A stretch of DNA of 40,805 nt from Bacteroidota bacterium. Its GTDB lineage: Bacteria; Bacteroidota; Ignavibacteria; Ch128b. Positions 17,941-35,764 of this stretch are shown here, one piece after another. Made by a program: the position numbers and the translations under genes. Numbering within the stretch: the stretch's first letter is position 1; each line of letters opens with the position of its first letter. The notes below the pieces were generated by a model. The model was not told the DNA's origin, ran no database searches, and worked only from the letters and a program-made list of their open reading frames with translations. Where the stretch lies: positions 1 through 40,805 of the forward strand of contig JAHJVF010000028.1 of NCBI GenBank assembly GCA_018828505.1, written 5' to 3'.

Positions 17941-19218
17941 ATGAATAAATATTTTTATAAATGCTTCAACTGTTCATCTCAATTCACTGCTGATGAAATT
18001 GAGTCCGAAGGATCCTTTGGAAAAGAAAGAATCTATCTCTGTCCCAAATGCGGTCAAGCAGAGAAAAATCAACCGCTGAAGGGAGTATTGCTTGTTGAAT
18101 ACGACTACGAAAATCTAAAGCGAAGTAGGAGTAGAGATGAGTTCCTTAAAATCCCATGTGGTAAATTCTGGCGTTATTCCGATCTATGGCCGATTCGGTC
18201 ATTTGAAAAAATAATTCCTCAATCAAAACTTGAAAGAATTTCGCTGACTCATGATCCGCTTCTTGAGTTTGATTACACCGGGAGAAAAATTTTTGTTTTC
18301 GACGATACGCGCAATCCCACTCTCTCATATAAAGATCGAGCAACAAGTTTGGTTGTGTTAAAAGCCATCGAGTTAGGTATAAACGAGATTGCCGCCGCAT
18401 CAACAGGCAATGCAGGTTCATCACTTGCGGGAATTTGTGCAAGACTCGGACTCAAATCACATATCTTTGTTCCTGAAAATATTCCTTCTGCAAAAAGGAT
18501 TCAAATCCAATCATTTGGTGCAAATCTATATTTAGTGAAAGGAGATTACGATCAAGCATTCGATTTGTGTCTTGAAATAAGCCGAATGAAAAATTGGTAT
18601 AATCGAAACACCGCTTATAATCCTATGACGATTGAAGGGAAAAAATCTGCGGCATTTGATATTTTCATTTCGATGAAAGGAATAATTCCGGATAAAATTT
18701 TTGTGCCGGTTGGTGATGGTGTCATCATATCGGGATTGTACAAAGGATTCACCGAACTTCTCAAATTAGGATGGATTGAAAAGCTTCCACAATTAATTGC
18801 AGTTCAAGCAGAAGGAAGCAATGCCGTTGTTCGTTATGTTCAGACTGGAAAATTTGAATATCAGCCTGCCTCCACAATTGCGGACAGTATTCATGCCGGC
18901 GCACCGAGAAATCTTTATATGGCTGCTCATGCAGTCACAACGAGTTTAGGTACTGCAATTTCAGTTTCCGATGAAGAAATTCTTTCGGCTCAAAAATCGA
19001 TTGCACAAAATTTCGGAATCATTGCCGAACCTTCATCTGCTGCATCTTTTGCTGGGTATGAAAAGTTTGTTCGAAGCGGGAGTATTTCAGCAAACGAAAA
19101 TGTTTTGCTCATGCTAACCGGGAATGGATTGAAAGATACATCAGCACTTTCTAAATGGAACGATGAACCTGTTTCAAAATCCACAGATGAGTGGAAAAAG
19201 TTATTTTTAAGTGAGTAA
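17941..19218 (+). CDS. Threonine-synthase-like fold-type II PLP enzyme with an N-terminal zinc-ribbon
   Basis: CFNCSSQF...CPKCG zinc ribbon, LSYKDRATS PLP-lysine motif and ASTGNAGSSLA glycine loop. Confidence 0.75.
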   Translation: MNKYFYKCFNCSSQFTADEIESEGSFGKERIYLCPKCGQAEKNQPLKGVLLVEYDYENLKRSRSRDEFLKIPCGKFWRYSDLWPIRSFEKIIPQSKLERISLTHDPLLEFDYTGRKIFVFDDTRNPTLSYKDRATSLVVLKAIELGINEIAAASTGNAGSSLAGICARLGLKSHIFVPENIPSAKRIQIQSFGANLYLVKGDYDQAFDLCLEISRMKNWYNRNTAYNPMTIEGKKSAAFDIFISMKGIIPDKIFVPVGDGVIISGLYKGFTELLKLGWIEKLPQLIAVQAEGSNAVVRYVQTGKFEYQPASTIADSIHAGAPRNLYMAAHAVTTSLGTAISVSDEEILSAQKSIAQNFGIIAEPSSAASFAGYEKFVRSGSISANENVLLMLTGNGLKDTSALSKWNDEPVSKSTDEWKKLFLSE

Positions 19219-19867
19219 CAGTAAACCAAAAATAAGCGGATTGCTTGCATGTGCCGGCAAATCTGAAAGGATCGGAAGTCCAAAACCTTTGTTAATGTAC
19301 AGAGGGTTGCCTTTTTGTGTTTTAATACTTGCAAAGATGAATCTAATTTGTGAAAGAATTGTTGTTGTGATTGGTCACAAAGCTGATGAGGTTAGAAGAG
19401 AACTGGAAAAATATTTATCGGATGTTGCTAAACTTGAACGAGAGCTTCGGGACGATTCACTGATTAACCACATTTCGGAGATGCATAACAAAGTTGAGAT
19501 CATTTTAAATGAAAATTACGAACTCGGTATGTTTTCTTCTTTACAATGCGGAATTGAAAAAGTGAGCGATACTGATTGGGTGCTATATCATTTTACAGAT
19601 CAACCGACACTTCCAGTTTCATTTTATTTTGATTTGGTGGGGCAGCTTGATAATAAATTCGATTGGATCCAGCCCAGATTTAACGCGCAAAATGGACATC
19701 CTATTTTCTTAAATCATGAGTTATTTCAAAGAATCATTTTCAGTCCTCGAAATTCAGACTTACAAAAACTGACTTCATACAAAAGCTGTAAAAAGAAGTA
19801 TTGGGATTGCCCTTATCCGCAAGTTCTTGACGATATTGATACACCGAAAGATTTTTTTTCAATTTGA
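19211..19867 (+). CDS. mocA: MocA/YgfJ-type nucleotidyltransferase (molybdenum cofactor cytidylyltransferase-like)
   Basis: GLLACAGKSERIGSPKPLL matches the MobA/MocA N-terminal signature. GTG start overlapping the upstream stop by 8 nt. Confidence 0.7.
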   Translation: MSNSKPKISGLLACAGKSERIGSPKPLLMYRGLPFCVLILAKMNLICERIVVVIGHKADEVRRELEKYLSDVAKLERELRDDSLINHISEMHNKVEIILNENYELGMFSSLQCGIEKVSDTDWVLYHFTDQPTLPVSFYFDLVGQLDNKFDWIQPRFNAQNGHPIFLNHELFQRIIFSPRNSDLQKLTSYKSCKKKYWDCPYPQVLDDIDTPKDFFSI

Positions 19868-19884
19868 AATCAGCACATCAATAA

Positions 19885-20718
19885 ATGCAAATAGAAAAGC
19901 ACATATATGAGTTAAAGCAAAATAATCTTCCGTTTGTTGCAGCAACAGTTGTAAAAGAGATTGGTTCTGTTCCCGGGAAAGTTGGTTTTAAAATTGTTGT
20001 TCAATCGGAAAAAGAATTTTATGGTACGGTCGGCGGCGGCGCAATTGAATTGGAAGTAATTCAAGAATCGGTTGAAAGAATGAAATCCGGTGAAAGCGGG
20101 ACTAAAGAATATCTTCTATCTAAAAATCCGAAAGACGTTGATGGCGAAGTCAAAACTCTCCCGATGAATTGCAGCGGAAGAGTGTGGATTTACTATGAAG
20201 TTCATGGTTCACTTTCAACATTATATTTATTCGGCGGCGGACATGTCGGAAATGCTTTGCTATATTATCTGAAACCTTTGAACTTTCACACAATTCTAAT
20301 TGATAACCGTCCGGAGTACGCTAACACAGAAAAGAATCCAAATGCAAATGAAATTCATTTATCGGACTACCTCGAGTTTGCGGCGAAATTTCAACCTAAC
20401 GAAAAATCATTTACTGTAATTATGACTCACGGACATAACTTCGATTATTTAATTCTTCAAAAACTTTTTGAGAGAAAATTAATATTCAAATATATTGGTG
20501 TGATTGCGTCAAAAACGAAAGCAACTGCGATTGTGAAAGATTTGAAAAAGGGATTTTCCAAAGGATCTCCGAAGGAGTCTGTGACCTTCGGAGGCGATGA
20601 TCTTAATCTTAGTATGCTTCATTCACCGATTGGATTAAATATTGGAGGTACATCTGCCTCAGAGATTGCCCTCTCTGTTGTGGCTGAAATTCAAAAGGTT
20701 AAGTACGAGAAAAGCTAA
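19885..20718 (+). CDS. XdhC/CoxI-family molybdenum hydroxylase maturation factor (YqeB-like, short form)
   Basis: N-terminal XdhC_CoxI-like GSVPGKVGFKIVV...GTVGGG. Rossmann-like LFGGGHVGNAL. C-terminal HSPIGLNIGGTSASEIALSVVAEI. Confidence 0.8.
   Translation: MQIEKHIYELKQNNLPFVAATVVKEIGSVPGKVGFKIVVQSEKEFYGTVGGGAIELEVIQESVERMKSGESGTKEYLLSKNPKDVDGEVKTLPMNCSGRVWIYYEVHGSLSTLYLFGGGHVGNALLYYLKPLNFHTILIDNRPEYANTEKNPNANEIHLSDYLEFAAKFQPNEKSFTVIMTHGHNFDYLILQKLFERKLIFKYIGVIASKTKATAIVKDLKKGFSKGSPKESVTFGGDDLNLSMLHSPIGLNIGGTSASEIALSVVAEIQKVKYEKS
20567..20593. repeat. CCGAAGG/CCTTCGG-family hairpin inside the xdhC-like CDS (CTCCGAAGG agtctgtga CCTTCGGAG)
   Basis: Perfect 9-bp arms inside the ORF, encoding part of SKGSPKESVTFGG. 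Confidence 0.75.
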
Positions 20719-21734: not shown

Positions 21735-22385
21735 ATGAGCATAATCCAAGAAATACGAGAGAAAATATCTCAAGAAATTTTTAACCACACTCAGGTTCTT
21801 GATATTCTAAGAGATTACAGTAAACCAAGAGATGTTATAAGTAATCTGCTCAGGCGAGGAGATATTATCCGCATTAGAAAAGGGCTATATGTGTTTGGAA
21901 AGTTCTGGCGGCGGTATCAATTCAACAAGGAGCTATTGGCTAACCTGATTTACGGTCCATCTATAATTAGTCTTGATTATGTCCTATCAATTTCTGGATT
22001 GATACCGGAAAGTGTTTCAACATTAACATCCATCACAACGGGAAGATCGCGCATCTTCGAAACTCCAGTAGGAAGATACTCTTATAAGCAGCTCAACAAA
22101 GAACGGTTCTCTTATGGATCAGAATTGCACAAAACTGATACCGGAAGTTATTTCGCCGCAAATCCATTAAAAGCATTAGCTGATAAAATCTGGTTAGATA
22201 AAAGATTTAAGCCGATATCCCCTTCATCTTATGCCGAATATCTTTTTGACGATCTCAGAATTGATGAAAAGATTTTAGAAGAATATCTCAATGCAGTTAA
22301 GCTCGATGAACTTGAAAAGGTTTATTCTTCCCGTAAAATTAGTTGGTTCATTGCATTTCTTAAGAAAGAATTCCGTATCGTATGA
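21735..22385 (+). CDS. abiEi: AbiEi-family type IV TA antitoxin / transcriptional regulator
   Basis: 216 aa with an N-terminal wHTH-like segment LRRGDIIRIRKGLYVFG. Overlaps (ATGA) the downstream AbiEii-type gene. Confidence 0.7.
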   Translation: MSIIQEIREKISQEIFNHTQVLDILRDYSKPRDVISNLLRRGDIIRIRKGLYVFGKFWRRYQFNKELLANLIYGPSIISLDYVLSISGLIPESVSTLTSITTGRSRIFETPVGRYSYKQLNKERFSYGSELHKTDTGSYFAANPLKALADKIWLDKRFKPISPSSYAEYLFDDLRIDEKILEEYLNAVKLDELEKVYSSRKISWFIAFLKKEFRIV

Positions 22386-23248
22386 ACGAATTATTAAAAC
22401 AGCTAATAACGAAACCTCTCCCAAATTCCGAGATAGAAATATTAAGGTTATTAAGAGAAACATTACAATCATTATCTTTACTTGGTCTTTGGCGTGCAAA
22501 CTTTTTTGAGCATGCAGCTTTTTATGGCGGAACAGCTTTAAGAATTCTTTACGGCTTAGATCGTTATTCGGAAGATTTAGATTTTTCATTACTGAATCCC
22601 TCGCATAATTTTTCTTTTGAAAAATATAGAGATTCTATTATTAGAGAATTGGGAGCGTTTGGCTTCAATGTCGAATTCGATGTTAAGAAGAAGAGTGCTG
22701 TCTCTCAGATTGAATCGGCTTTTATTAAAACTAATACTTTTAAGCAATTAATGATAATAGAAGCGCCCGAGCGGATAATATCTAACATCGACAAAAGAAC
22801 TGTTCTAAAAATAAAATTAGAAGTAGATACAAACCCGCCTCCTGATTTCGATACTGAAATGCAATATGTTTTTTCACCTTTACAATTTGCAGTGCGGACA
22901 TTTACTCTTCCATCATTATTCGCTGGTAAAATGCATGCAGTACTTTGCAGAAAATGGAAATCTCGCGTTAAAGGACGCGATTGGTACGATTTTGCCTGGT
23001 ATGTATCGCATCATCCTAAACTCAATCTCAAACATCTTGAATCCCGAATGAGAGATTCCGGTGATTATCAAGAAACTGCTCCTTTACTCAAGGAAACATT
23101 TCTTAGAATGCTGAATGATGCCATTGAACAGTTTGACGTAAAGAAAGCAAAAGAAGAAGTTGAACCATTTGTAAATGACAAACGTTCACTCGAAATATGG
23201 TCTAAAGATTTCTTTAAAGCGGCAGTAAATAAAATAGAGGTTATTTAA
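22382..23248 (+). CDS. abiEii: AbiEii/AbiGii-family nucleotidyltransferase toxin (DUF1814)
   Basis: FYGGTALRILYGLDRYSEDLDFS is the signature nucleotidyltransferase motif of AbiEii. Confidence 0.85.
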   Translation: MNELLKQLITKPLPNSEIEILRLLRETLQSLSLLGLWRANFFEHAAFYGGTALRILYGLDRYSEDLDFSLLNPSHNFSFEKYRDSIIRELGAFGFNVEFDVKKKSAVSQIESAFIKTNTFKQLMIIEAPERIISNIDKRTVLKIKLEVDTNPPPDFDTEMQYVFSPLQFAVRTFTLPSLFAGKMHAVLCRKWKSRVKGRDWYDFAWYVSHHPKLNLKHLESRMRDSGDYQETAPLLKETFLRMLNDAIEQFDVKKAKEEVEPFVNDKRSLEIWSKDFFKAAVNKIEVI

Positions 23249-23306: not shown

Positions 23307-24614
23307 ATGAATAAAAAAATATTACTTGTAATTACGTTTGCATGCTTGAATACGGCCAATTTCGCTCAGCAAATTAAAATTGATATTACCAATACAGTAT
23401 CTACAAAAGCTGCACTTTTTTCTTTAAACGGTGAGAGGTTCTCTTTTGTAGATTCAATTTTTACTTCAGCACCGGGAAAGTTTAATTATTCTGATAAAAA
23501 TTTAATACATGGATTTTATCGTCTCTCTTTTGACGTACAAAAATCAATTACTTTATTACATGACGGCGAAGAAGTTGAGATAACTGCAAACGCAGAAAAC
23601 ATTTCCGAGTCCATTCATATTGTGACTTCAGTAAGTAACAAATTTTATTTTAAATTTTTAAACCTAAGTAAGTCATATAAAACAAAAACAGAATTGCTTC
23701 AACTTATTTTAGCCCGTTATCCAAAAGATGATGACTATTATAAAATCACTCAAGAAAAATTTGTACAGCTGCAAAAAGAATATTCAGAATTTGTAGAGAA
23801 CTCAATAAAATCGAATCCAAATTCATTCATCGCTCGTTACATCCAATCAGCTCGACTACCAATTGTTGTCTTTAACTTACCATTAGATAAACAGCGCGTC
23901 TTTCTCAAAACTCACGCTTTAGATAATCTGAACTTCAATGATGCTCAGCTAATCTACTCAGATGCTTTCACCAATAAAACAATCGAGTACTTAACATATT
24001 ACCGCAATCCTCAATTACCAATGGATCTGCTTGAAAAAGAATTTATTTTTGCAGTGGATACAATTTTGAATAAAGCGAAAGTCAATCAAATCGTTTATCA
24101 ACATATAGTTGAATATCTGATCGATGGTTTCAAGAAGTTCGGTTTTGATAAAGTGATTGATTACATAGTTGAGAATTACGTGATAAAAGATGATCTGTGT
24201 CTTGATGCAAAAACAGAAAGTTCCATTCAAAGACGAATAGATCAAAGCAAAAAACTGTCGGTCGGTGTGGTCGTACCAAATATCAAATTGCAAAGTGCTG
24301 ATGGAAAGGAGATTGACCTTTCAAAAATTAAATCAGATAAAGTTTTAATTCTATTCTATGCAAGCTGGTGCCCGCACTGTCAAACATTACTGCCTCAGAT
24401 TTTTGGATTGTACAATTCTCAAAAAGTTAGGAAAACCGAAGTACTTGCAATTTCTATCGATACGAGCAAAGCTGACTGGTTGAATTTTATAAAAACATAT
24501 AATTTAAATTGGCTAAACGTTTCTGACCTAATGGGTTGGGAAGGTAAAGCAGCAACCGATTATTTCATCTACGCTACACCTACAATGTTTCTTATAGATA
24601 GCGAAAAAAAATAA
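23307..24614 (+). CDS. TlpA/AhpC-TSA-like thioredoxin-fold protein with a long N-terminal domain and a signal peptide
   Basis: FYASWCPHCQ CxxC motif in the C-terminal thioredoxin fold. The stop lies immediately after an A8 run; see findings. Confidence 0.75.
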   Translation: MNKKILLVITFACLNTANFAQQIKIDITNTVSTKAALFSLNGERFSFVDSIFTSAPGKFNYSDKNLIHGFYRLSFDVQKSITLLHDGEEVEITANAENISESIHIVTSVSNKFYFKFLNLSKSYKTKTELLQLILARYPKDDDYYKITQEKFVQLQKEYSEFVENSIKSNPNSFIARYIQSARLPIVVFNLPLDKQRVFLKTHALDNLNFNDAQLIYSDAFTNKTIEYLTYYRNPQLPMDLLEKEFIFAVDTILNKAKVNQIVYQHIVEYLIDGFKKFGFDKVIDYIVENYVIKDDLCLDAKTESSIQRRIDQSKKLSVGVVVPNIKLQSADGKEIDLSKIKSDKVLILFYASWCPHCQTLLPQIFGLYNSQKVRKTEVLAISIDTSKADWLNFIKTYNLNWLNVSDLMGWEGKAATDYFIYATPTMFLIDSEKK

Positions 24615-25113: not shown

Positions 25114-26004
25114 ATGGCAAAACTAAAAAAATTCGGGACCTTTGGCGGAGTATTTACTCCCTCAATTCTAACAATACTTGGCGTAATAATGTATCTCCGT
25201 TTGCCATGGATAGTGGGGCAGGCGGGATTGATTTCAACTATAGGTATTGTTTTGCTCGCCCATTTGATTTCGGTTTCTACCGGACTTAGTGTCTCATCCA
25301 TTGCAACGGATAAAAAAGTTAAAGCCGGTGGAACTTACTATATGATTTCTCGAAGTCTCGGACTTCCAATCGGAGGGACTTTGGGACTGGCTTTATTCGT
25401 GGGGTTATCATTCAGCGTAAGTCTTTATTTAATTGGTTTTTCAGAAAGTTTTTTGAACTACTGGGGTTTTGAGGTTACAAAAAATTCTATTCGCCTTGCG
25501 GGTACGCTAATTTTAATTACCGTTACTGTAATTACATTTATCAGCACATCTCTCGCAATTAAGACGCAATATTTTATAATGACGGCAATTGCTTTGTCGC
25601 TTCTTTCTTTGCTTTTCGGTAATCATAATTATACCCCAACCGAGCCATTGATTTATCCACTCGAAACCGCCGCACCTTTTATAGTTTTGTTCGGGATTTT
25701 CTTTCCCGCTGTTACAGGTTTTGAAGCTGGAGTTTCAATGTCGGGAGATTTACAAAACCCCAAGAAATCTATTCCGACGGGAATAATTTCTGCTATCGCG
25801 ATTGGATTGATCGCTTATTTGGGATTAGCTTTTTTCTTCACTTATTATGTTTCTTCCGATCTGTTATTCAACGACCCGAATGCATTTAACTTTTATTATT
25901 GCGGAAGCCGGAATACTGATTGGCGATCTCGATGTGATTGCACGGATCGTTTCAATGTTCTTTATTACTACTTATGGATTTCTGAACTTAAGCTGCGCGG
26001 CTGA
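25114..26004 (+). CDS. N-terminal fragment (TM1-TM7) of an SLC12/cation-chloride-cotransporter-like APC permease; the frame is lost near 25890
   Basis: [33 protein letters not shown] and [26 protein letters not shown] match CCC family TM1 and TM6 signatures. The last roughly 38 aa of this ORF are out-of-frame nonsense. Confidence 0.75.
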
Positions 26005-29000
26005 AAGTTGGGCAAGCTCTGATTTTAGACCCGATTTTAAGATACCGAAAAGTGTAAGCATCATCGGATCGGCGGCATGTTTTATTGTAATGCTCCAACT
26101 TGATTTTATTGCGATGGTTGGGGCAACAATTATTTTGGGTACGTTGTTTCTATATCTAAAAAGGAAGGAACTTACTCTCGATACAGGTGATACATGGGAT
26201 AGTGTTTGGTCATCAATAGTTAAAAAGGGATTGGCAAAACTGAGCATGGGAAAATCCGACCCGCGAAACTGGCGCCCGAATGTTCTTCTTTTCAGCGGCG
26301 GTACAGATGTTAGACCCCATCTTGTTGAAGCTGGGAGATGGCTTACCGGAAGACTCGGTATTCTTTCTAACTTTCATTTAAAAGAAGATGCAGCGTCTTC
26401 ATCTTTACTCAGGAAATTAAGCAACGATGAAAAAACCTATCAGGATGAGGAAGGACTTTTCACACAGAGTTTTATCTGTCGGAATGTTTATGAAGGGATA
26501 GACGTAATAACGCGTGTTTATGGTTTTTCGGGAGTTGAACCGAACACTATCTTAATGGGCTGGGGACGCAATACAAAAGACCCGCTCCAGTTTTCTTCAC
26601 TGATTAAGAATTTTAATGAGCTTGATCTAAACTCTATCTATCTCAACTATAATGAAGAGCGTGGCTTTGGTCAGATGAAAACCATTGATGTTTGGTGGCG
26701 GGGCGCAGGAAATAATTTTACTCTCGAGATGACACTTGTTCGTTTTCTTACTTCCAATCCCGACTGGCGGGACGCAAATGTCCGTTTTCTTATTATCAGT
26801 AACTTTAGCTCTGTGGTGGGGAAAGCGTACAAGAATCTTAACCAGATACTTGAACAGTATCGCGTAATCGGCGAAATTAAAGTGATCAACAACGAGATTG
26901 AACAACGGCGCTCAGCAGATATAATTAAAGCCGAATCTGCTTCCGCTGACCTGACGATATTCGGTATTCCCGATGTTACAGAAGAAGATGCCGCTGGATT
27001 TATTGAGACAATCAATAATCTTACTAACGAGCTGGGAACTACTTTGTTCGTTCACGCATCTTCTTATTTTGATGAGATAGATGTGGGCATCAAAAAGGAA
27101 TATTTATTCTCCGAGTCATCTCATGAAACTTTTGTTCTGCCTGAAATTAGAGCCAGGAAAAATGTTACCGTTGAAAAAGAAGTCGTTATTTTGAACAGTA
27201 AGTATGAGTCGCTTCTCCGCGGGTTCTTCGATCAGTGTGCCGATAAATTGGTCTCCCTCAATAAATCCCCATTAATTGAATTGAAAAATGAGGGAATTAA
27301 AATTTACGATAAGATAAGGGATGTGAATAAGCTAAAGATAACTAGCAGACAGAAAGATGCACTCTATCAACTAAGGCGCGAGGCTGTTAGTTACAGCGAA
27401 AAAATATGTATCGAACAGTCTGCTGCAATCGAAGATTTTACTGATTTTATTAAAGAAAACATCGAGTATGTTTACTCAAAAGAAAAAAAACTTGTTAGCG
27501 AACTTCCGCAACGGTTAATAATTCACTATGATAAAGAAGAATTAAAAAATGCAGGCACTTCCGGTTTGGGAAGTAAATTAAGAAAAGCAGTAATAACCGT
27601 AAAAACTATTTTTTCAAAGTCACCAATTTCTGTACCTGTTAAGTTTAGTGAATTTGCAAATAATTATATTCAGAAGTCGCTTGCCAATCATTTCATTATT
27701 TTCTTAAACGAACTGGAACGAATCAGCTATAAGCTTGCTTCAGATCTTCATAACTCTGAATCGGTACTAATTTCCTCCATTGATAGATTCATTGCAAAAC
27801 TAAATGGCAGAGAAAGTGCAACACACATTAAAAATGAAGAGGAAAAATTTACTGCTCAGTTAAACGAACACCTTAATTTAGCAGAACAAAATTTAATTAA
27901 AGTAAAAACCGAGCTGTTGAAGAACGCCAGAAACAACATGCAGGATATGGTGTTTGACCTTGAAAGGATCGATGCAAATTCTATTCTGCGGAGGGATAGA
28001 CGTGTTACAAAACAAGATCGCAGACGAAATGAATCCTCATCCGATTTCCCAAAAACATGGCAAAGAAATCTTAAAACACTTCTTTCTACTGTGAAAACCG
28101 ATTTGATGATTGAAAAATTAAAGGGCGTTGGCTTTGAAGAAACCTTAAAAATTGAAAACGACCTGAGAAAGATTTTTACCGGTAAATATACAAACCTGCT
28201 CAATAACTCTGCAAAGACATTGGACGATATTGAAACGGGTAAATTATCCAATCAATTTGATATTCAAATTGAGAAAGATATAAATCTTCAATCTTATACC
28301 GATAGGTTAGCAGAAGTGATGCGGAGTGAGATAACCAAACTGCCAGAGGAAATAGAAGTAATCGGCGAAAACTTTAGTGAAGCGGTTGAGACTATCCGCT
28401 TTGATGAAGGAGATACTGCGGTAATCTCAATTAGAAAGTTAGTTGACTTTTCATTTGAATCGGAATTTGTGGGAGTAAGTCAAGCTCATACTGTGAATTA
28501 TCAAAGGGCACTTAGGCGTGCAATAGGCGAAGCAAGGGATGTGATCAATCTTGTTAACTTCAATTTGCAGACAGTCGAAGAAGATAAAGAATCGGCTGAT
28601 GAGGAAATGAATCTTAGTCTATTAGCTGGTAGAATGAGAGAATGTTCTGAGATGTTTACAAAGGTTCAAGATGAATATTTAGCGAACGTGAAAAATTCAT
28701 TTGCAAAAGCATTTGAACCTTTAACTTCATATTCTATATTAAAATCCGCATCCGAACTGAGCGCCCATGTACGCGAACTTGGCGGAAAGAAAGTGATCTC
28801 TAAATTTACACGAAAGAAAGAAGCAGTATATAATTATTTTCAAAATATACTTGTACGACTTTTTTATAAACGCTCTGAAGGAATATTATTTGCAAAGCAG
28901 ATAGACGAGCTTCAGGCGGAAGAGTTTAACTCAGCAGAGCTTCTTACGTTTACAGCTCAATTAACACCGGAAGCAAGTTTAATCGAAAAACTTCCACATT

Positions 29001-30016
29001 ACTATAAAAAACTTTTTGGAGGAAGTTCCAGCGTAAGTGGCGCACTATGGGTTGGAAGAAAAACCGAGCTTGAAAAATGCCGGCAGGCATTCGAAAGATT
29101 TAATTCCGGTTACACCGGAGGATTATTGATACTCGGGCAGCGGAACGATGGGAAAAGTGCCCTTTCGAAGAAGATTGCCGAAATGAACTTTGAACCGGAT
29201 AATATATTTACATTAAATGCTCCTTTATGCGGCAGTAACGATACTGCCGTATTCAAAGCCCGCTTACAAAAAGTTCTCCGTACAACAGAGTCTGTTGATA
29301 GAACTCTCTCCCGCTTCAACAACCACCAATATGCAGTAATTATTAATGATCTGGAATTGTGGTGGGAAAGAAGTGAAGAGGGTTTTCATATATTAACAGA
29401 AATTGATTCACTGGTCTCGAAATACGGAAATAAAGTCTTTTTCATTGTTAACAGCAGCCAATACTCTTATGCTTTTATTAGGCAGCTATTAAACCTTGAT
29501 CATCTGTTCGGAGGATTTGTCCGGTGCGAGCCTTTTGACGCCGAAGAATTAAAAGATATTATTCTTCTTCGACATCATGCGAGTGGAATGAAATTTATAT
29601 TAAATGATGTTATGGAAGAAGATTTATCAGAGCTTAAATTGGCCCGGTTGTTCAACGATTATTTTGATTTTTCTGAGGGGAATGTTGGAGTGGCATTGAA
29701 GAGTTGGCTCAACAACATAACTGAGATAAATGGAAATCAACTCAAAATAAAATATCCTTCAATCGTCTCAACAAACCAGCTAAACAAACTGCCTGATGAG
29801 TGGATATTCTTCCTGCTTCAATTTGTGCTTCATAGAAGGATGAACCGGCAAAAAGCATATAGAATAATTGGTGAGGAGAAACAAAAGATAGATTTGATTT
29901 TTAATAAATTGTTAAGAGCCGGGCTTCTCTCTGAAAGAGATGAGGGAGTATTAGAAATCAATCAAGTAGTAGAGCCGTTTATTATCAAAAACTTTTTGAA
30001 GACAGAAATATTATGA
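25847..30016 (+). CDS. Continuation of the SLC12-like protein (TM9-TM12 + SLC12 C-terminal domain) fused to a roughly 650-aa helical region and a C-terminal P-loop STAND/ORC-like ATPase with a wHTH-like tail
   Basis: [36 protein letters not shown] aligns to CCC TM9-10. NWRPNVLLF marks the start of the cytoplasmic domain. Walker A GQRNDGKS at 29135-29158 and Walker B-like VIINDLE near 29340. It is one uninterrupted 1389-codon frame, and the true start is unclear. Confidence 0.7.
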   Translation: MFLPICYSTTRMHLTFIIAEAGILIGDLDVIARIVSMFFITTYGFLNLSCAAESWASSDFRPDFKIPKSVSIIGSAACFIVMLQLDFIAMVGATIILGTLFLYLKRKELTLDTGDTWDSVWSSIVKKGLAKLSMGKSDPRNWRPNVLLFSGGTDVRPHLVEAGRWLTGRLGILSNFHLKEDAASSSLLRKLSNDEKTYQDEEGLFTQSFICRNVYEGIDVITRVYGFSGVEPNTILMGWGRNTKDPLQFSSLIKNFNELDLNSIYLNYNEERGFGQMKTIDVWWRGAGNNFTLEMTLVRFLTSNPDWRDANVRFLIISNFSSVVGKAYKNLNQILEQYRVIGEIKVINNEIEQRRSADIIKAESASADLTIFGIPDVTEEDAAGFIETINNLTNELGTTLFVHASSYFDEIDVGIKKEYLFSESSHETFVLPEIRARKNVTVEKEVVILNSKYESLLRGFFDQCADKLVSLNKSPLIELKNEGIKIYDKIRDVNKLKITSRQKDALYQLRREAVSYSEKICIEQSAAIEDFTDFIKENIEYVYSKEKKLVSELPQRLIIHYDKEELKNAGTSGLGSKLRKAVITVKTIFSKSPISVPVKFSEFANNYIQKSLANHFIIFLNELERISYKLASDLHNSESVLISSIDRFIAKLNGRESATHIKNEEEKFTAQLNEHLNLAEQNLIKVKTELLKNARNNMQDMVFDLERIDANSILRRDRRVTKQDRRRNESSSDFPKTWQRNLKTLLSTVKTDLMIEKLKGVGFEETLKIENDLRKIFTGKYTNLLNNSAKTLDDIETGKLSNQFDIQIEKDINLQSYTDRLAEVMRSEITKLPEEIEVIGENFSEAVETIRFDEGDTAVISIRKLVDFSFESEFVGVSQAHTVNYQRALRRAIGEARDVINLVNFNLQTVEEDKESADEEMNLSLLAGRMRECSEMFTKVQDEYLANVKNSFAKAFEPLTSYSILKSASELSAHVRELGGKKVISKFTRKKEAVYNYFQNILVRLFYKRSEGILFAKQIDELQAEEFNSAELLTFTAQLTPEASLIEKLPHYYKKLFGGSSSVSGALWVGRKTELEKCRQAFERFNSGYTGGLLILGQRNDGKSALSKKIAEMNFEPDNIFTLNAPLCGSNDTAVFKARLQKVLRTTESVDRTLSRFNNHQYAVIINDLELWWERSEEGFHILTEIDSLVSKYGNKVFFIVNSSQYSYAFIRQLLNLDHLFGGFVRCEPFDAEELKDIILLRHHASGMKFILNDVMEEDLSELKLARLFNDYFDFSEGNVGVALKSWLNNITEINGNQLKIKYPSIVSTNQLNKLPDEWIFFLLQFVLHRRMNRQKAYRIIGEEKQKIDLIFNKLLRAGLLSERDEGVLEINQVVEPFIIKNFLKTEIL

Positions 30017-30747
30017 TTACAAATGCCGAACTGCTTCCATTTATTTTTCGTTTGATTGAAACCGCAGCTGCGGGGTTTGTGCTGTTCATACTGTTAAAAA
30101 TTATCCACATGATGTTAAGCTATTTTACTAGGGGCAAAGAAATTAAAAAAACTGTATTGAACGTTCATCTTGCAGTTGCCGTGGCAGCGTGGGCGATCTT
30201 TTTTCTTTGGGGGATAAACTTAATTTTTACAGTTGATTTCACAACTAACCCCCTTGAACTTGTGTTGATTGTAGTACTCTTTGTGATTTTCGTTTGGCTT
30301 GCAGGAAGAGATATACTAGCCGGAATAATTCTTAAGTTTGAAAATTCACTTGAACTTGGAAATCTCATTACTTCAGATAATACCTCAGGAAAGATAAAAA
30401 AATTAGGATTAAGAACCGTTCAGCTTGAAACCGAAACAGGAGAATTATTTACTGTTCCTTATACAAAAATCTCTTCTGAAAAAGTAAGCATTAGAAGAAA
30501 AGAAAACCGTTACAAATATTTTGAAGGAGAGATTACAGTAGAGGGGAGAATCCCTCCCGCAGAAATCTCTGAGATTTTGCTCAAGAAACTGATGCTTTCG
30601 CATTATGCATCAGTTAAAACAAAACCCTCGGTAAATTTTCTCGGCATTAATGAGGGGAAATATAAATTTAAAGTTACCGTACCCACTCTGAAAAAAGAAT
30701 ATTTTGATAAACTCCTCTTTTCTCTTCAACACGAAATGACAAAGTAG
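30013..30747 (+). CDS. Small MscS-family mechanosensitive channel-like protein
   Basis: Three or four TM segments followed by AGIILKFENSLELGNLITSDNTSGKIKKLGLRTVQLETETGELFTVPYTKISSEKV, which resembles the MscS TM3/beta-domain core. ATGA overlap with the upstream ORF. Confidence 0.65.
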   Translation: MITNAELLPFIFRLIETAAAGFVLFILLKIIHMMLSYFTRGKEIKKTVLNVHLAVAVAAWAIFFLWGINLIFTVDFTTNPLELVLIVVLFVIFVWLAGRDILAGIILKFENSLELGNLITSDNTSGKIKKLGLRTVQLETETGELFTVPYTKISSEKVSIRRKENRYKYFEGEITVEGRIPPAEISEILLKKLMLSHYASVKTKPSVNFLGINEGKYKFKVTVPTLKKEYFDKLLFSLQHEMTK

Positions 30748-30845
30748 TTTACAATTTGTAATCACGTTTGTTGTTATGAATTCGGTGATGAGAAAAATCG
30801 ATTATTTGCATTATAGTATTGTGAACAATATTTTTATTTTTTATG

Positions 30846-31050
30846 CCTGCCTGCATACCTTCGGTATGTAAACTGGCAGGCAGGTCAAAATATTTAAAAC
30901 TGATTTTCTCCATTTTCCCCGCCTACACTGCGTTTCGGCGGGCAGGCATCTTCCATTCACCCCGCCTGCCAATACATAGCTATCTCGTGGCAGGTTGGAT
31001 AACTTATTTATATAGCCAGTGATATTTTTTAAAAAGTATATCCAACGGGG
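30846..31050. repeat. Second cluster of GC-core hairpin repeats (same word set as 1-780) plus a GTTGGATA...TATCCAACGGGG hairpin
   Basis: CCTGCCTGC / GCAGGCAGG hairpin at 30846-30884 encloses ATACCTTCGGTAT. CATTCACCCCGCCTGCCAATACATAGCTATCTCGTGGCAGGTTGG resembles copies 1-3. ATATCCAACGGGG at 31038-31050 is identical to 21414-21426. Confidence 0.8.
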
Positions 31051-31245
31051 TAAACATCTTCCATTGCGGTTTACCGCGCTATGTATCGGGATTATTTGTT
31101 TGTGCACCCTGAAGGATTCCTCCGAAGGAGTGCCTTTTGCAGAACCTTCGACCCACTGATTAAGAGTAATCGGAATTCTTTGCATTTCATTAATGTAAAT
31201 CAAGTTTGTTTGGTAACTCCATACAAGGTTGGAAGGAGTTCCAAC

Positions 31246-31690
31246 ATGTACATCATTAAAAACGATAAATCCCCATTCTATCAGATAGTTTATTTTGCTG
31301 ATGGTAAGCGTACAACTATCTCCACTAAAACTAAAAACATTCAAGAAGCTCATAGAGTCTTAGGCAATTTTTAAAAAGAATTAGAAAAACCTAAGCAGCA
31401 AATCAAACCCACTCTACTCTCAAAATTCAAGATGAAAATGAGGAATACATTCAAGCAAATAAATTAAGAAACTACTTACCTCAGTTAAACTCTCATTTAA
31501 GCATTTAATTGATTTTAATGATGATAGTCAGTTTAATCGCTAAGACATTCGGACTCTTGGATAATTTAATTACTTCCACTTTCATACAGGCTCCAAAAGG
31601 ATCCAGTCTTTATTATCGTACACTTAAAGCAATACTTTCTAAAGCATTCATTAAAATGTTATTCATGATAACAGAATTTAAGTTCGATCC
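31246..31690 (+). pseudogene. Tyrosine integrase N-terminal remnant (arm-binding and SAM-like region), broken by stops and frameshifts and lacking the catalytic domain
   Basis: AAGGAG plus ATG 31246 gives MYIIKNDKSPFYQIVYFADGKRTTISTKTKNIQEAHRVLGNF*. Downstream frames give LLSKFKDENEEYIQANK and APKGSSLYYRTLKAILSKAF, which are typical integrase N-domain strings. Confidence 0.65.
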
Positions 31691-31896
31691 CTATCTAAAA
31701 TCTTTTTTCTTTCTTCATATTCAACAGTTGTGAGTTCTCCACTAGCAAATTTCTTTTTCAAAATTTCTTCTGGAGTTTCTGTTAATGATTCTGGTTTATT
31801 AAATAATTTCACAAATAAATATGTGCCAATAATAATAACTATCACAAAAATCCACCAGAAGAAGTGCATACCAAACCAATAATGATCATGAAACAT
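31678..31896 (-). CDS. SHOCT-domain small membrane protein (paralog 1)
   Basis: 72 aa. MFHDHYWFGMHFFWW, then one TM, then the C-terminal SGELTTVEYEERKKIL SHOCT motif. Confidence 0.8.
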   Translation of the reverse strand: MFHDHYWFGMHFFWWIFVIVIIIGTYLFVKLFNKPESLTETPEEILKKKFASGELTTVEYEERKKILDRDRT

Positions 31897-31919
31897 ATCT
31901 TATCTCCTTTTATATTTTT

Positions 31920-32369
31920 TTAAATCTCGTACGATGCATAAATTTCATCATTTTTAATTTTAACATGAAAGGGTTTTAAAGGTCGTGGTGGTGGTCCAGC
32001 AATATTAATCCCATTAAGATCGTAATGTCCGTTATGACATGCACACCAAATATGCTGAAGTTCTTCACGATACTGAACCGTGCATGCTAAATGTGTGCAA
32101 ACTGCACTGAACGCTTTAAACTCACCGTCCTGTGTTTTAATTAAAATTCCGGGTTCATTCCCGAATCGAAAAATCTTACCGCTATTCGGTTTTAACTCAT
32201 CTATTTTACCGGTAAGAACAGTACTCGGTTTCGGTTCATCACCTTTTGGTGGAATTAAAAATTTCCAAAGTGGATATAGGGTTGCCAACATAAAAGCAGT
32301 CAAACCTCCACCAAGGAAATATCCCAGAAATGTTCGCCGTGATTTATTTGGTGTACCGGACTTTTTCAT
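31920..32369 (-). CDS. Tat-exported Rieske [2Fe-2S] domain protein
   Basis: SRRTFLGYF twin-arginine signal. CTHLAC and CACHNGHY Rieske ligand boxes. Confidence 0.85.
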   Translation of the reverse strand: MKKSGTPNKSRRTFLGYFLGGGLTAFMLATLYPLWKFLIPPKGDEPKPSTVLTGKIDELKPNSGKIFRFGNEPGILIKTQDGEFKAFSAVCTHLACTVQYREELQHIWCACHNGHYDLNGINIAGPPPRPLKPFHVKIKNDEIYASYEI

Positions 32370-32410
32370 TTATAATTTCTATACATATTAAATCAATCTG
32401 TAAAAATGTA

Positions 32411-32581
32411 TTAGTGTTCGTGCTTCTTAGTGTTTTCTTTGTTTATATACCTATTTGGTTCTTTATTAAACTTTTCTTTACAGGAAGCCGAACAGAAATA
32501 ATAAAACTTGCCTTTGTATTCAATCTTTTCGGCATCCTCGATGTTCATTAAGTGCATTCCACAAACCAAATCCTTTTCCAT
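32411..32581 (-). CDS. YHS/TRASH-domain mini-protein (56 aa): MEKDLVCGMHLMNIEDAEKIEYKGKFYYFCSASCKEKFNKEPNRYINKENTKKHEH
   Basis: My own translation; it is absent from the ORF track because it is under 60 aa. Has the CGM...FCS..C metal-binding pattern, GGAGG 5 nt upstream of the ATG, and lies between the cupredoxin and Rieske genes. Confidence 0.75.
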   Translation of the reverse strand: MEKDLVCGMHLMNIEDAEKIEYKGKFYYFCSASCKEKFNKEPNRYINKENTKKHEH

Positions 32582-32637
32582 CTTAACCTCCTTTTTAAAG
32601 TTGTTGATTTTATATTAATTCATCATCTGGATTTTTA

Positions 32638-33015
32638 TTACTCAATTATTATTTTTCCTCTAACCATTCCCATCCCGCATTGGAATCCGTATTCACCTGT
32701 TTTATCGATTTGTAATTCAACCGGAATTGTTCTGAATGGGGTTAATGTTGCTTTTTTATTAAAATCGGGAAATATAACTTCCTCGGTACAGGCTGCGGTT
32801 TCTTCACGAATAAAATTGAGTTTAATTGGCTTACCTGCTTCAAAAATGAGTACATCAGGTGTGTAACCTCCTTTTACTTTTATCACAGCTTCCTGCCATC
32901 CTCCATCTGATGCGCGTACTTTAACAGCTTTTTTCTCAGAGAACCAAAAATACCACGCAACCCAGAATGAAAGTCCCAGTCCGCCAATAATCACTAATAT
33001 TTGATCAAGTGTCAT
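32638..33015 (-). CDS. Membrane-anchored cupredoxin-like domain protein (CopA-associated)
   Basis: 125 aa with an N-terminal TM, CTEE...FQCGMGM Cys/Met ligand-like motifs, and a position immediately downstream of copA. Confidence 0.7.
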   Translation of the reverse strand: MTLDQILVIIGGLGLSFWVAWYFWFSEKKAVKVRASDGGWQEAVIKVKGGYTPDVLIFEAGKPIKLNFIREETAACTEEVIFPDFNKKATLTPFRTIPVELQIDKTGEYGFQCGMGMVRGKIIIE

Positions 33016-33028
33016 TATATCATCTCCA

Positions 33029-35764
33029 TTATTTCAATTTAGGTTTGAAATTTCTTAACCGATTTGCATTTGTTACAACAGTTACGGAACTAAACGCCAT
33101 TGCAGCACCGGCAATTAACGGTGATAGCAATAATCCAAAGAATGGATAAAGTAATCCGGCAGCAACTGGAATTCCCAGTCCGTTATAAAAGAATGCGCCG
33201 AAAAGATTTTCTTTTATGTTTTTCATAGTCGCTTTAGAAAGTTGAATTGCAAGAACAACTCCTTTTAAGCTTCCTTTGATTAAGGTAATATCAGAAGCCT
33301 CAATTGCTACATCTGTTCCAGTGCCAATTGCTAATCCTATATCAGCTTGAGCAAGAGCAGGGGCATCGTTTATTCCATCACCAACCATCGCAACTTTTTT
33401 CCCTTCATTCTGAAGTTTCTGAACATTGAATGCCTTGTCTTCTGGAAGAACTTCAGCTAGGACTCTATCAATTCCAACCTGTCTGGCAATAGCGTTTGCT
33501 GTTCGGCTGTTATCACCGGTTATCATAACAACCTCCAAACCTAATTTTTTCAACTGAGCGATTGCTTCTTTCGAATCAGCTTTTATTGTATCGGCAACCG
33601 CAATTATGCCGGCAGCTTTGTTGTCAATAGCAACGAACATCGGAGTCTTTCCGTCATCAGCTAGGTGAGTGCTTTTTTCTTCGAGTCCACCAAGATCGAT
33701 ATTAAACTTTTTCATCATCTTAAGATTGCCTAAATAAATCTTGCGTCCATTTACATTGGCTTTAACACCATGACCCGGGACAGCGTTAAACTCATTCGGA
33801 TCGACTAGAGTAATTCCTTTGTCAATAGCTCCTTTAACAATTGCTTCAGCTAATGGATGTTCGGATACTTTCTCAACACTTGCACTGAGGGAGAGTACTT
33901 CTTCTTCAGTGAAGTCATTCGCAACGATAACATCTGTTAGCGAAGGTTTGCCTTCTGTGATAGTTCCGGTTTTATCAAGTACAATAGTATTTAGCTTCTG
34001 AGCAGTCTCTAATGCTTCGCCGCTTCTAATCAATATTCCATTCTCAGCACCTTTACCAACTCCAACCATTAATGAAATTGGCGTTGCAAGACCAAGCGCG
34101 CACGGGCAGGCAATTACCAAAACGGTAACAAATACAATCAAAGAATAAATAAGTTGCGGTTCTGGACCAAAAACATACCAAACAACAAACGATAAAATTG
34201 CTGCGATGACTACTCCCGGTACAAAGTATCCCGAAACTTGATCAACTATTTTTTGAATTGGCGCTTTAGAACTCTGAGCCTGTTCAACCATTTGAATTAT
34301 TTGAGCAAGAGCAGTGTCTTTCCCAACTTTTGTAGCTTTGAACTTGAAAGAGCCTGTCTTATTTATTGTTGCTCCAATTACTTCGTCTCCAAGGTTCTTT
34401 TCGACCGGAATTGCTTCACCAGTTATCATTGATTCATCTACTGACGAAGAACCGTCGATCAGTGTTCCATCTACAGGAATTTTTTCACCTGGCCTAACTA
34501 AAATAATTTCATCTAATACAACTTCTTCAACCGGAATATCTAAATCTTTTCCATCTCTTATAACGCGTGCAGTTTTAGCTTGAAGACCAATTAATTTTTT
34601 AATTGCTTCAGAACTTTTTCCCTTAGCTCGAATTTCTAAAGCCATTCCTAAAACTACTAAAGCTACAACTACAAATATTACATCGAAGAACTGATCCGCT
34701 AATTCAGCTTTGGGAAAAACTGACGGGAAGTAAGTAGCAATAACTGAGTAGAGAAACGCAGCAGTAATACCGGTTGCAATAAGTGTGTGCATATTTGCAG
34801 ACCTGTTTTTGAATGCAGCCCAAGCTCCTGTATAAAATTGTGAGCCGGACCAGAACATTACTGGCAAGCTGAGCAAACTCATCGCTACCCAGATATATCT
34901 CAATATTGGAGACCCCATTTGAAATTGTTCGGGTAAACCCCAGACAGTCGGGTAACTGAAAAATATTACCGGCAGAGATAAAATCGCAGCGAAAATAAAT
35001 TTATTCATAAGGGTCTTATATTCTTTTTCGCGGGCGGCTTGGTTCTCATCAACCGGTTCTTCCCTGCCTGCGCCTGCCTGCGCAGGCGGGCGGGCAGGTT
35101 TTTGTTCTTTTCCATCTTCCTTTGGCTTAACTCCCGAAGTATCAAACGTTTTGTAACCAAGTTTTTCAATTACTTTTTTAATTTCGTTAACATTTATTGA
35201 GCCGGGCACATAATTAATTAATGCTGATTCACTTCCGAGATCGATGCTCGCAGAAATTATTCCTTTTGTCTGGGCGAATTCCTTTTCAATTTTTGTTACA
35301 CACGAGCCGCAGTGCATTCCGTTAATTCCAAGTTTGAGCGTTGACATCCCAGCTTGGTAGCCGGCATTTTTTACTGCGGAAATAATTTCGGAAGTAGATG
35401 TTTCTGCATTTTTAAATTCTACAAAAGCTGTTTCCGAAGCGTAGTTTACAACAGCCGATTTTATACCCGGCAATTTCTTGATCTCTTTCTCAATAGTATT
35501 TACACAAGTTGAACAGCTTAATCCTTGTATTTGCAGTTGTAATTTTTCAATGCCATCTATTGTTGTTCTGTTTGAAGCTTCACTGCTTTGTTTGTGCACA
35601 AATTCATTCGGGTTCAGCTCAAATTTATTCTTGCAATTATCAGAACAAAAATCGAATCTCTTTCCATTCGTATCTAGAAAATATTTCGAAGGCGACTTCA
35701 CTTCCATTCCGCACACTGGATCGTGAACCGGATAATTTTTTGTTGAAGAGCCGTTATTAGACAT
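33029..35764 (-). CDS. copA: Copper-translocating P1B-type ATPase with an N-terminal YHS/TRASH domain and two HMA domains
   Basis: CGMEV...FCSDNC, GLSCSTC and GMHCGSC metal-binding domains. CPC motif ([11 protein letters not shown]), [15 protein letters not shown]. Confidence 0.95.
35062..35098. repeat. GC-core hairpin (CCTGCC TGCGCCTGCC tgcgca GGCGGGC GGGCAGG) embedded in frame in copA
   Basis: Same core words as the 1-780 repeats. Folds as 8 bp, a 2-nt bulge, then 6 bp. Encodes [12 protein letters not shown] in the linker between HMA2 and the first TM. Confidence 0.75.

Follow-up and report, generated by a model that had tools for sequence, protein, structure and literature searches.

Why would a cation-chloride cotransporter be joined on one polypeptide to a P-loop ATPase, and why would its gene run directly into one for a relative of the mechanosensitive channel MscS? 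These questions are raised by positions 25114 to 30747 of contig JAHJVF010000028.1 (GenBank assembly GCA_018828505.1), from a Bacteroidota bacterium placed in the Ignavibacteria (Ch128b). We analyzed the contig over its full length of 40,805 nucleotides (nt), which we call the window; coordinates are those of the window throughout, and all annotated parts of the locus lie on its + strand. An earlier note, made from the letters alone, had described here a cotransporter-type permease, a long helical region, a winged-helix P-loop ATPase, and a coupled gene for an MscS-like channel, and widespread single-frame orthologues of about 1,700 amino acids (aa) uphold this architecture. We lean slightly toward reading the locus as a two-gene module for ion homeostasis, conserved across many bacteria and recently inactivated in this strain, its function being predicted. 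The descriptive parts of that reading are firm: domain identities, conserved ATPase motifs, the recurrence of both the fusion and the gene pairing across genomes, an ion-transport neighborhood, and two lesions.

The fusion is real and not an artifact. A search with the long open reading frame (ORF) returned 1,250 homologues, the full-length ones being 1,690 to 1,735 aa long and carrying PF00324, PF03522, and PF13191 (AA_permease, SLC12, and AAA_16). A profile of the C-terminal 430 aa, searched exhaustively, matched 3,512 representatives (50%-identity clusters) at E ≤ 1e-3 and 1,010 at E ≤ 1e-30, most of them about 1,700 aa long; with each species represented by a single genome, 265 genomes encode a relative. 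Carriers include Bacteroidota, Ignavibacteria, Calditrichia, Marinimicrobia, Latescibacteria, Desulfobacteraceae, and the cultured Flexithrix dorotheae. We fetched 80 reference-genome loci, mostly from Bacteroidota, Ignavibacteria, Calditrichia, and Marinimicrobia, 79 of them with enough downstream sequence; a single ORF of more than 1,600 aa that includes the permease is present in 65 of the 80, and the broken loci are mostly nanopore assemblies or contig ends. The earlier note had allowed that orthologues might carry permease and ATPase as separate genes, and this survey finds the fusion genuine. Other N-terminal domains on homologues of intermediate length (1,100 to 1,550 aa) were considered and rejected, as most of these proteins are N-terminally truncated cotransporter fusions and the true stand-alone proteins have no other Pfam domain. 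Orthologues of the Microscillaceae type run about 120 aa longer (1,821 to 1,833 aa versus the usual ∼1,700 aa). In public records the members go by no more than "amino acid permease," "ATP-binding protein," or "hypothetical protein," so surveys that rely on annotation will miss the family.

In the window itself the gene is broken. A program-made ORF list has three + strand ORFs within positions 25114 to 30747 (Table 1), and the permease does not begin a single frame at 25114, as the earlier note had it: the first ORF is in frame 1 and the second in frame 2, a disruption that had been overlooked. Other elements of that description stand. The cytoplasmic C-terminal domain of the permease, placed by the note near 27.1 kb, ends near 27.09 kb (HASSYFDEIDVG at 27053 to 27088); frame 2 then stays open for about 970 further codons, close to the 950 estimated; and the long ORF's stop overlaps the start of the 244-aa MscS-like gene in an ATGA at 30013 to 30016.

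The nature of the break is evident from L001 (ENA ERZ27247117), an independent assembly of essentially the same strain that was found via the exact MscS-like protein. The two sequences are identical over the gene's 5′ part up to 25886 and 99.98% identical downstream of it, and L001 has 184 nt (its positions 1514 to 1697) that are absent from the window at 25886. This segment encodes LFKIALVPELVVAGIWGATLSSAFGSILGAPRILQATSVDKITPKFFSKGFGSLNEPRNAL, comprising transmembrane helix (TM) 8 and the following loop, which are common to every orthologue; orthologue P0002 has 62 additional residues at the same site, confirming the missing stretch. An insertion in L001 was rejected and the lesion is read as a deletion in the window, because the segment encodes the TM8 conserved in all orthologues. 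About 62 codons are lost, covering TM8 (GIWGATLSSAFGSILGAPRILQA, with its ATLSS motif) and most of the following segment, and with TM8 deleted and the frame broken the transporter cannot work in the window. L001 is itself interrupted, by a stop at 26441. Since the assemblies of this strain carry the deletion, the stop, or both (Table 1), and an intact copy was seen in none of the window, L001, L082, L083, and L084, the window copy is a pseudogene. It is a recent one, because nothing beyond these two lesions disturbs the 5-kb reading frame and the MscS-like gene is undamaged; an intact gene would, on reconstruction, encode 1,695 aa. In L084 (contig JAHJSL010000107.1), position 1 coincides with the deletion junction (window 25886), a break that would be expected if the sample contained a mixture of reads, some with the 184 nt and some lacking them. 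The copy should be left out of any tally of this genome's functional transporters; its state makes this one locus less valuable, but not the family.

What, then, does the family encode? Its N-terminal ∼700 aa, identified by sequence comparison, are a genuine SLC12 cation-chloride cotransporter (TC 2.A.30), as had been proposed. In the window, the Pfam AA_permease profile matches ORF 25114-26004 with an E value of 1.4e-25 over positions 2 to 254 of 470, and the reconstructed N-terminal 724 aa match KCC4, KCC1-3, NKCC1, and NCC chains at 1.9e-75 (KCC4) to 5e-54, the phmmer alignments with KCC4 and KCC2 extending into the C-terminal domain to query residue 654. TIGR00930 covers residues 2 to 669 of P0002 (E = 1.2e-113), and PF03522 (SLC12), precomputed on most orthologues, matches the long ORF of the window below its family threshold (2.7e-5). 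The APC-fold domain with 12 TMs is present in the family and in the intact allele, the window retaining only what matches profile positions 2 to 254 plus the last helices. In a 62-sequence alignment, most columns of this domain are at least 90% conserved across phyla. TM8 reads GATLSSA in the alignment consensus and in L001, a motif deleted from the window copy; ATLSS is the signature of Na+-site cotransporters, as opposed to STLGA in KCCs (PMC11641049). We predict that the family comprises secondary Na+/K+-Cl− symporters.

Beyond the cotransporter's C-terminal domain lies a region that the earlier note put at about 650 residues without a recognizable domain. We place it at about 580 aa, and it is indeed predicted to be all helical. 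AlphaFold2 models built with the 62-sequence alignment gave a predicted local distance difference test score (pLDDT) of 85.6 for the 969-aa C-terminal part and of 86.3 for its first 600 aa, the latter with a predicted template modeling score of 0.79; in the model, a unit in which a beta strand, a short helix, and another beta strand stand between two long helices occurs twice in the helical domain. Its charge is balanced at about 15% of each sign, a hydropathy scan found no membrane segments, and sequence conservation across it is low. Pfam and NCBIfam have nothing on this domain, nor NCBIfam on the whole 969-aa part, and Foldseek against the PDB with the domain alone found no analogue (best E value, 0.017; probability, 0.16); the top matches were proton pyrophosphatase and designed helical bundles, at probabilities of 0.25 or less. 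A weak dynein match (probability, 0.8; template modeling score [TM-score], 0.04) was dismissed as generic long-helix similarity. Judging from the model, the domain appears to be an elongated bundle of a new kind, a ∼580-aa fold without a solved relative.

The remainder of the fused protein, its last ∼360 aa, is predicted to be an ORC/Cdc6-like, STAND-related AAA+ switch module. The Walker A, Walker B, and winged-helix elements that the earlier note had picked out are all in place (Table 1), and the profile and structure searches found the NTPase fold that it anticipated. Across the 62 sequences, G682 and K683 of Walker A, W753, R822, and H909 are invariant, and D748 and E750 of Walker B and N782 are at least 90% conserved; the motifs G..GK[ST] and IINDLELWWER, the sensor-1-like Asn, the lid motif P[FY]D.E.L...ILLRH, and the winged-helix Q..LH are invariant or nearly so, and W.R is invariant throughout. 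The model, with pLDDT of about 90 over this region, combines these Walker motifs with a base, lid, and winged-helix fold. The best Foldseek matches were Cdc6/ORC (2.0e-7) and RuvB (2.7e-7), in a range of 2e-7 to 5e-6, with TM-scores to target of 0.41 to 0.48 and alignments of 340 to 430 columns, enough for core, lid, and winged helix; NLRP7 (6.4e-5), PAB2304 (2qen; 1.6e-4), and RPP1 (2.4e-4) formed a weaker tier. The winged helix has the modeled secondary structure H-H-H-E-E. A PDB search with the C-terminal profile gave weak matches, to ClpC/ClpB (ClpC D1, 5e-4) and, at profile positions 355 to 410, to the MarR/SlyA chain 4mnu (3.3e-3), so the fold assignment required the structure model. Pfam matched AAA_16 on the long ORF of the window at 2.2e-4 (24.2 bits against a threshold of 32.6) and, among 11 members, AAA_16 in 7 (best, 7.7e-8), nSTAND3 in 3 (5.4e-5), and ATPase_2 in 1, along with AAA_22 and AAA. 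By our reading of the alignment, the segment expected to carry an arginine finger (box VII), from the sensor-1 Asn to the lid, has no invariant Arg. The earlier note's comparison with AAA_16, archaeal ATPases, and STAND NTPases thus holds for the NTPase fold, the P-loop, and the winged helix, whereas STAND is not the best label. We prefer ORC/Cdc6-like because the Foldseek scores are better and because no sensor repeats follow the winged helix: the protein ends about 55 to 60 residues after the invariant H909, Pfam scans had no match to TPR, WD40, or LRR, and the repeat-type sensor domain that defines STAND proteins is absent.

The gene that follows is, from its sequence, translationally coupled to the fused gene and predicted to encode a divergent MscS-family membrane protein. 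Pfam MS_channel_2nd (PF00924) matches it at 8.1e-13, and a profile of 36 family sequences matches E. coli MscS (2vv5) at 2.2e-11 over residues 31 to 243; the alignment was built from the fetched loci, a word-indexed search with the protein having given only 2 relatives. TM3 and the beta-domain core of MscS are present. The Gly/Ala-rich, pore-lining TM3a is not: this helix reads LELVLIVVLFVIFVWLAG in the window and has bulky hydrophobic residues likewise across the 36 sequences.

How constant is the association between the two genes? An MscS-like gene lies within 210 nt downstream of the fused gene on the same strand at 74 of the 79 loci, overlapping or abutting it in 41 of these, so the pairing reported in the earlier note is a conserved one. 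Three further loci, from Bacteroidales, have a second, stand-alone cation-chloride cotransporter between the two genes (PF00324, PF21555, and PF21554, by a Pfam check of L033), and the remaining two have, respectively, a gap of 417 nt and no MscS-like gene (L046). When all neighboring ORFs at the 80 loci were clustered, only three more families recurred: a Na+/H+ exchanger (27 loci, in 19 of them directly upstream and divergent), a histidine kinase (19 loci), and a canonical MscS (10 loci). The partnership also exists without the fusion. In three loci of the Cyclobacteriaceae type (L037, L042, and L065) the helical-ATPase protein stands by itself, with no detectable trace of a cotransporter; a Na+/H+ exchanger gene lies upstream in divergent orientation, and on the downstream side the MscS-like gene overlaps. 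A fusion of a Na+/H+ exchanger with Usp comes next in L042 and L065, and the L037 contig ends before that position. A mechanosensitive-channel gene also follows the stand-alone P0158, and the stand-alone P0226 has neither an MscS-like nor a transporter neighbor. The most constant partnership is therefore that of the helical ATPase with the MscS-like protein, and the surrounding theme is monovalent-ion transport.

A sigma-70 promoter scan was at background level (22 sites found against 21.2 expected) and all terminator-like sites fell within coding sequence, so operon boundaries cannot be set this way. The idea of a c-di-AMP or other ion-related riboswitch gained no support: upstream of the gene, in the window as well as in five related loci, an Rfam scan had no match to a riboswitch or any other RNA.

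Table 1. Features of the cotransporter-ATPase locus, alleles of the strain, and related or neighboring genes
Feature	Locus or assembly	Position	Strand	Basis or remarks
ORF, frame 1	Window	25114-26004	+	296 aa
ORF, frame 2	Window	25847-30016	+	1,389 aa; first 13 codons are out-of-frame sequence; the rest holds last TM helices, C-terminal domain, helical domain, ATPase, winged helix
ORF, MscS-like	Window	30013-30747	+	244 aa
5′ part of cation-chloride cotransporter gene (TM1-TM7 and start of following loop)	Window	25114-25886	+	Frame 1; Pfam AA_permease; aligns to KCC4 TM1-TM7
Deletion junction	Window	25886-25887	+	184 bp lost; TTA(A) microhomology; frame shifted
Remaining TM helices (LTFIIAEAG to LFLYLKRKE) and linker	Window	25887-26263	+	Frame 2; alignments to P0002 and KCC4
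SLC12-type cytoplasmic C-terminal domain (RNWRPNVLLFSG to HASSYFDEIDVG)	Window	26264-27106	+	phmmer alignment to KCC4/KCC2
Polymorphic site	Window	26441	+	C in window (CAG, Gln505 of intact protein); T (TAG stop) in L001, L082, L084
Helical domain, ∼580 aa	Window	27164-28898	+	Helices of 50 to 60 residues; no hydrophobic membrane segments
AAA+ type P-loop ATPase, core and lid (predicted)	Window	28931-29773	+	Motif conservation, Foldseek, weak Pfam
Walker A, GQRNDGKS	Window	29135-29158	+	
Walker B, VIINDLELWWER	Window	29336-29371	+	
Sensor-1-like, FFIVNSS	Window	29438-29458	+	
Lid, CEPFDAEELKDIILLRH	Window	29525-29575	+	
C-terminal winged helix (predicted)	Window	29774-30013	+	Invariant Q..LH (QFVLHRRM, 29819-29842)
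MscS-family protein, 244 aa	Window	30013-30747	+	Three hydrophobic helices, beta domain, short alpha/beta domain
Allele	Window	26441		184-bp deletion present; C (Gln)
Allele	L001 (ENA ERZ27247117)	26441		Deletion absent; T (stop), so itself interrupted
Allele	L082 (Logan SRR10598173)	26441		Deletion present; T (stop)
Allele	L083 (JGI 3300014148)			Deletion present; contig ends before 26441
Allele	L084 (NCBI GCA_018829875.1)	26441		Contig begins exactly at junction; T (stop)
Stand-alone cotransporters between the two genes (736 to 764 aa), three Bacteroidales genomes	L033; L036; L050	11184-13442; 11312-13522; 11181-13475		
Stand-alone helical-ATPase proteins (975 to 986 aa), Cyclobacteriaceae type	L037; L042; L065	3216-6176; 8339-11287; 8351-11278		
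Microscillaceae-type orthologues	L048; L052; L066; L069	215-5716; 5792-11293; 5792-11293; 5831-11296		
AbiEi antitoxin and AbiEii nucleotidyltransferase toxin, overlapping genes	Window	21735-23248		PADLOC, 4e-55 and 8.6e-106, plus Pfam
Molybdoenzyme cluster and copper-ATPase/cupredoxin/Rieske genes	Window	6721-9126; 19211-20718; 31920-35764		

How might these parts work together? ORC/Cdc6/STAND-type modules are nucleotide-dependent conformational or assembly switches. The conserved catalytic residues suggest that nucleotide binding, and probably hydrolysis, matters to the family, and a secondary symporter of the Na+/K+-Cl− type makes it unlikely that the ATPase energizes transport. We propose that the module would serve as a nucleotide-dependent switch and not as a motor, with the helical arm linking the membrane parts to it. 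Through this arm the switch could set the activity of the salt-uptake transporter, of the MscS-like protein as a tension sensor or valve, or of both, and salt uptake and solute release would thereby be coordinated under osmotic or ionic stress. Translational coupling and near-universal pairing suggest that the MscS-like protein works with the switch, and because the switch pairs with that gene even where no cotransporter is fused to it, the channel-like protein may be its primary partner. By analogy with its relatives, the cotransporter part likely has a role in salt uptake and volume control. A bolder version, to which we give a low probability, would have the pair form one physical turgor and ion homeostat, in which the MscS-like protein senses tension, the ATPase is an ATP/ADP switch, and the helical arm reaches to a dimeric cotransporter, so that membrane tension and energy state would switch salt uptake directly. 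If true, the pair would provide a kinase-free counterpart to the way WNK-SPAK controls cation-chloride cotransporters in animals, and no AAA+ module would have been known before it to regulate a secondary transporter.

Several points weigh against the proposed ion-homeostasis module. The argument for a regulatory ATPase is drawn from architecture and neighborhood alone, and all Pfam ATPase matches are at or below their family thresholds. The winged helix could bind DNA instead. Lacking the Gly/Ala-rich TM3a packing of E. coli MscS, the MscS-like protein may be nonconducting. There is also a mismatch of symmetry, since AAA+ proteins form hexamers, cation-chloride cotransporters dimers, and MscS heptamers. 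Finally, the partnership has exceptions in L046, where the MscS-like gene is missing, and in the isolated P0226.

Three other readings of the locus deserve consideration. That the fusion or the gene pair is a biologically meaningless artifact of assembly or deletion in this metagenome-assembled genome could be argued from the deletion and frameshift of the window copy and from the broken ORFs of several nanopore-assembled related loci (L010, L031, L044, and L074); it is refuted by the 65 reference loci with one uninterrupted ORF, by proteins encoded on complete chromosomes of 3.6 to 8.8 Mb, and by the 1,010 representative clusters at E ≤ 1e-30, and the deletion lies inside the transporter domain, away from the fusion point. 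The earlier note had itself raised an abortive-infection function, in which a STAND-like ATPase would sense infection and open the transporter or the MscS-like channel, collapsing ion gradients. The AbiEi/AbiEii pair 1.9 kb upstream in the window, the weak nSTAND3 matches, one weak match to BrxC_BrxD (1.6e-4), the NLR-type STAND structures among the Foldseek matches (6e-5 to 2e-4), and the loss of the gene through independent lesions in this strain, as often happens with costly defense genes, would all suit an antiphage system. We nevertheless consider it very improbable. PADLOC-DB 2.0 (5,027 models) had no match for the fused protein, for P0002, or for the MscS-like protein, and the neighbors that do recur at the 80 loci are the Na+/H+ exchanger, the histidine kinase, canonical MscS, and the second cotransporter, with no defense gene among them. 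The AbiE genes were rightly seen next to the locus, but they adjoin the gene only in this genome and are unlinked to it in all 80 related loci, and the rest of the window is not a defense island. The strong conservation of the transporter domain across phyla suits a housekeeping transporter better than a fast-evolving immune effector, and the gene's position beside an ion exchanger is stable.

The structural relatives of the ATPase invite a further alternative, namely that the protein is a membrane-tethered transcription regulator, in which the winged helix would bind DNA and the ATPase would make gene expression respond to ion load or to the state of the transporter. The winged helix has its weak MarR/SlyA match and sits at a free C terminus, the ∼580-aa arm could reach the nucleoid, and the AAA+ proteins nearest in structure, Cdc6/ORC and RuvB, bind DNA; beyond the cotranscribed MscS-like gene, however, there is no visible conserved operon as a target. 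In Cdc6/ORC and STAND proteins the winged helix is integral to the nucleotide switch, which counts against a separate DNA-binding role, and we judge this alternative improbable. The two-gene ion-homeostasis module remains the reading that we favor.

Elsewhere on the contig, positions 24515 to 24569 differ from L001 and L083 by 17 substitutions in 55 nt, the flanking kilobases being almost identical otherwise. This patch lies in the 3′ end of a TlpA/AhpC-like redoxin gene (23307 to 24614), where it turns NVSDLMGWEGKAATDYF into NASDLKGWNGKAVSDYF; it has the look of a short tract of gene conversion or recombination, or else of a chimera formed with a paralogue. Downstream of the MscS-like gene, about 1.1 kb (30750 to 31900) is mostly noncoding, and a 97-aa ORF within it (31081 to 31374), ending in KNDKSPFYQIVYFADGKRTTISTKTKNIQEAHRVLGNF, may be the cut-short N-terminal arm-binding part of a Bacteroidota tyrosine integrase, a putative mobile-element remnant. 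The contig further carries a molybdoenzyme of the xanthine dehydrogenase type with XdhC and MobA-like accessory genes and a copper P-type ATPase (YHS and HMA domains) beside a cupredoxin and a Rieske protein, in addition to the TlpA-like redoxin.

In the full-text literature, subscription journals mostly being uncovered, we came upon no account of a cation-chloride cotransporter that is fused to a P-loop ATPase or has an MscS homologue as its partner, in agreement with the earlier note, which knew of no such combination. The components each come from known families; what appears new is the way they are combined, together with the helical domain. In animals, cation-chloride cotransporters have a central place in cell-volume control and are medically important, and their prokaryotic members have barely been studied. 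Here is a large, conserved bacterial lineage in which such a cotransporter is predicted to contain its own ATP-binding switch, next to a helical domain of a new kind, and in which an MscS-type partner is obligatory. If these components cooperate, they would offer a compact and genetically tractable model for coordinating salt uptake with emergency solute release, and ORC/Cdc6/STAND-like ATPases would gain a job beyond DNA transactions and immunity.

Set beside known systems, the switch module has Walker A and B, a sensor-1-like Asn, and the lid Arg in common with Cdc6/ORC and RuvB (PDB 7tji_I, 2qby_A, 1fnn_A, and 1in5), at only 11 to 16% identity and the TM-scores given above; unlike those proteins, the fused family is joined to a membrane transporter and is not associated with genes for replication or recombination. 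STAND NTPases (NLRs, NB-ARC) and archaeal ATPase_2 proteins (PAB2304) have the same order of ATPase, helical lid, and winged helix, with lower structural scores than Cdc6/ORC, and the family's Walker B with the Trp after it (NDLELWW) resembles the DDVW of NB-ARC. The invariant H909 in the winged helix is a candidate counterpart of the MHD-like His through which STAND winged helices contact bound ADP. E. coli MscS (PDB 2vv5 and 2oau) aligns with the partner protein over its three TM helices, the AG..L of TM3b, the beta domain, and most of the alpha/beta domain; the MscS-like protein is shorter (about 235 to 250 aa), lacks the C-terminal tail, has the bulky TM3a, and is always encoded beside a helical-ATPase gene. 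In concept, the closest parallels are the nucleotide-gated bacterial K+ systems Ktr/Trk with their RCK/KTN rings and osmosensing transporters such as ProP with its coiled-coil tail, where a cytoplasmic nucleotide-binding or helical sensor domain sets the activity of the ion or osmolyte transporter to which it is attached. Their folds are unrelated to the fused family, so the likeness is a functional analogy, and we know of no AAA+ module or MscS partner in either system.

The cotransporter part has the clearest relatives. Stand-alone prokaryotic cation-chloride cotransporters (PF00324, PF21555, and PF21554; ∼750 aa) belong to the same transporter family and end after a two-lobed C-terminal domain, whereas the C-terminal domain of the fused family goes unrecognized by PF21555 and PF21554, weakly matches the eukaryote-type PF03522, and leads on into the helical arm. 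Eukaryotic SLC12 proteins (NKCC1, NCC, and KCC1-4; PDB 7d99 and 6pzt) have in common with it the 12-TM APC fold and the cytoplasmic C-terminal domain, and the Na+-dependent members also the ATLSS of TM8. The fused family differs from them in lacking their long N-terminal phospho-regulatory tail, in its operon with an MscS-family gene, and in TM1, which reads LTIL where the signature is given as LNIL (PMC11641049). Among described SLC12 members, it alone has about 970 extra C-terminal residues, which provide the helical bundle, the AAA+ ATPase, and the winged helix.

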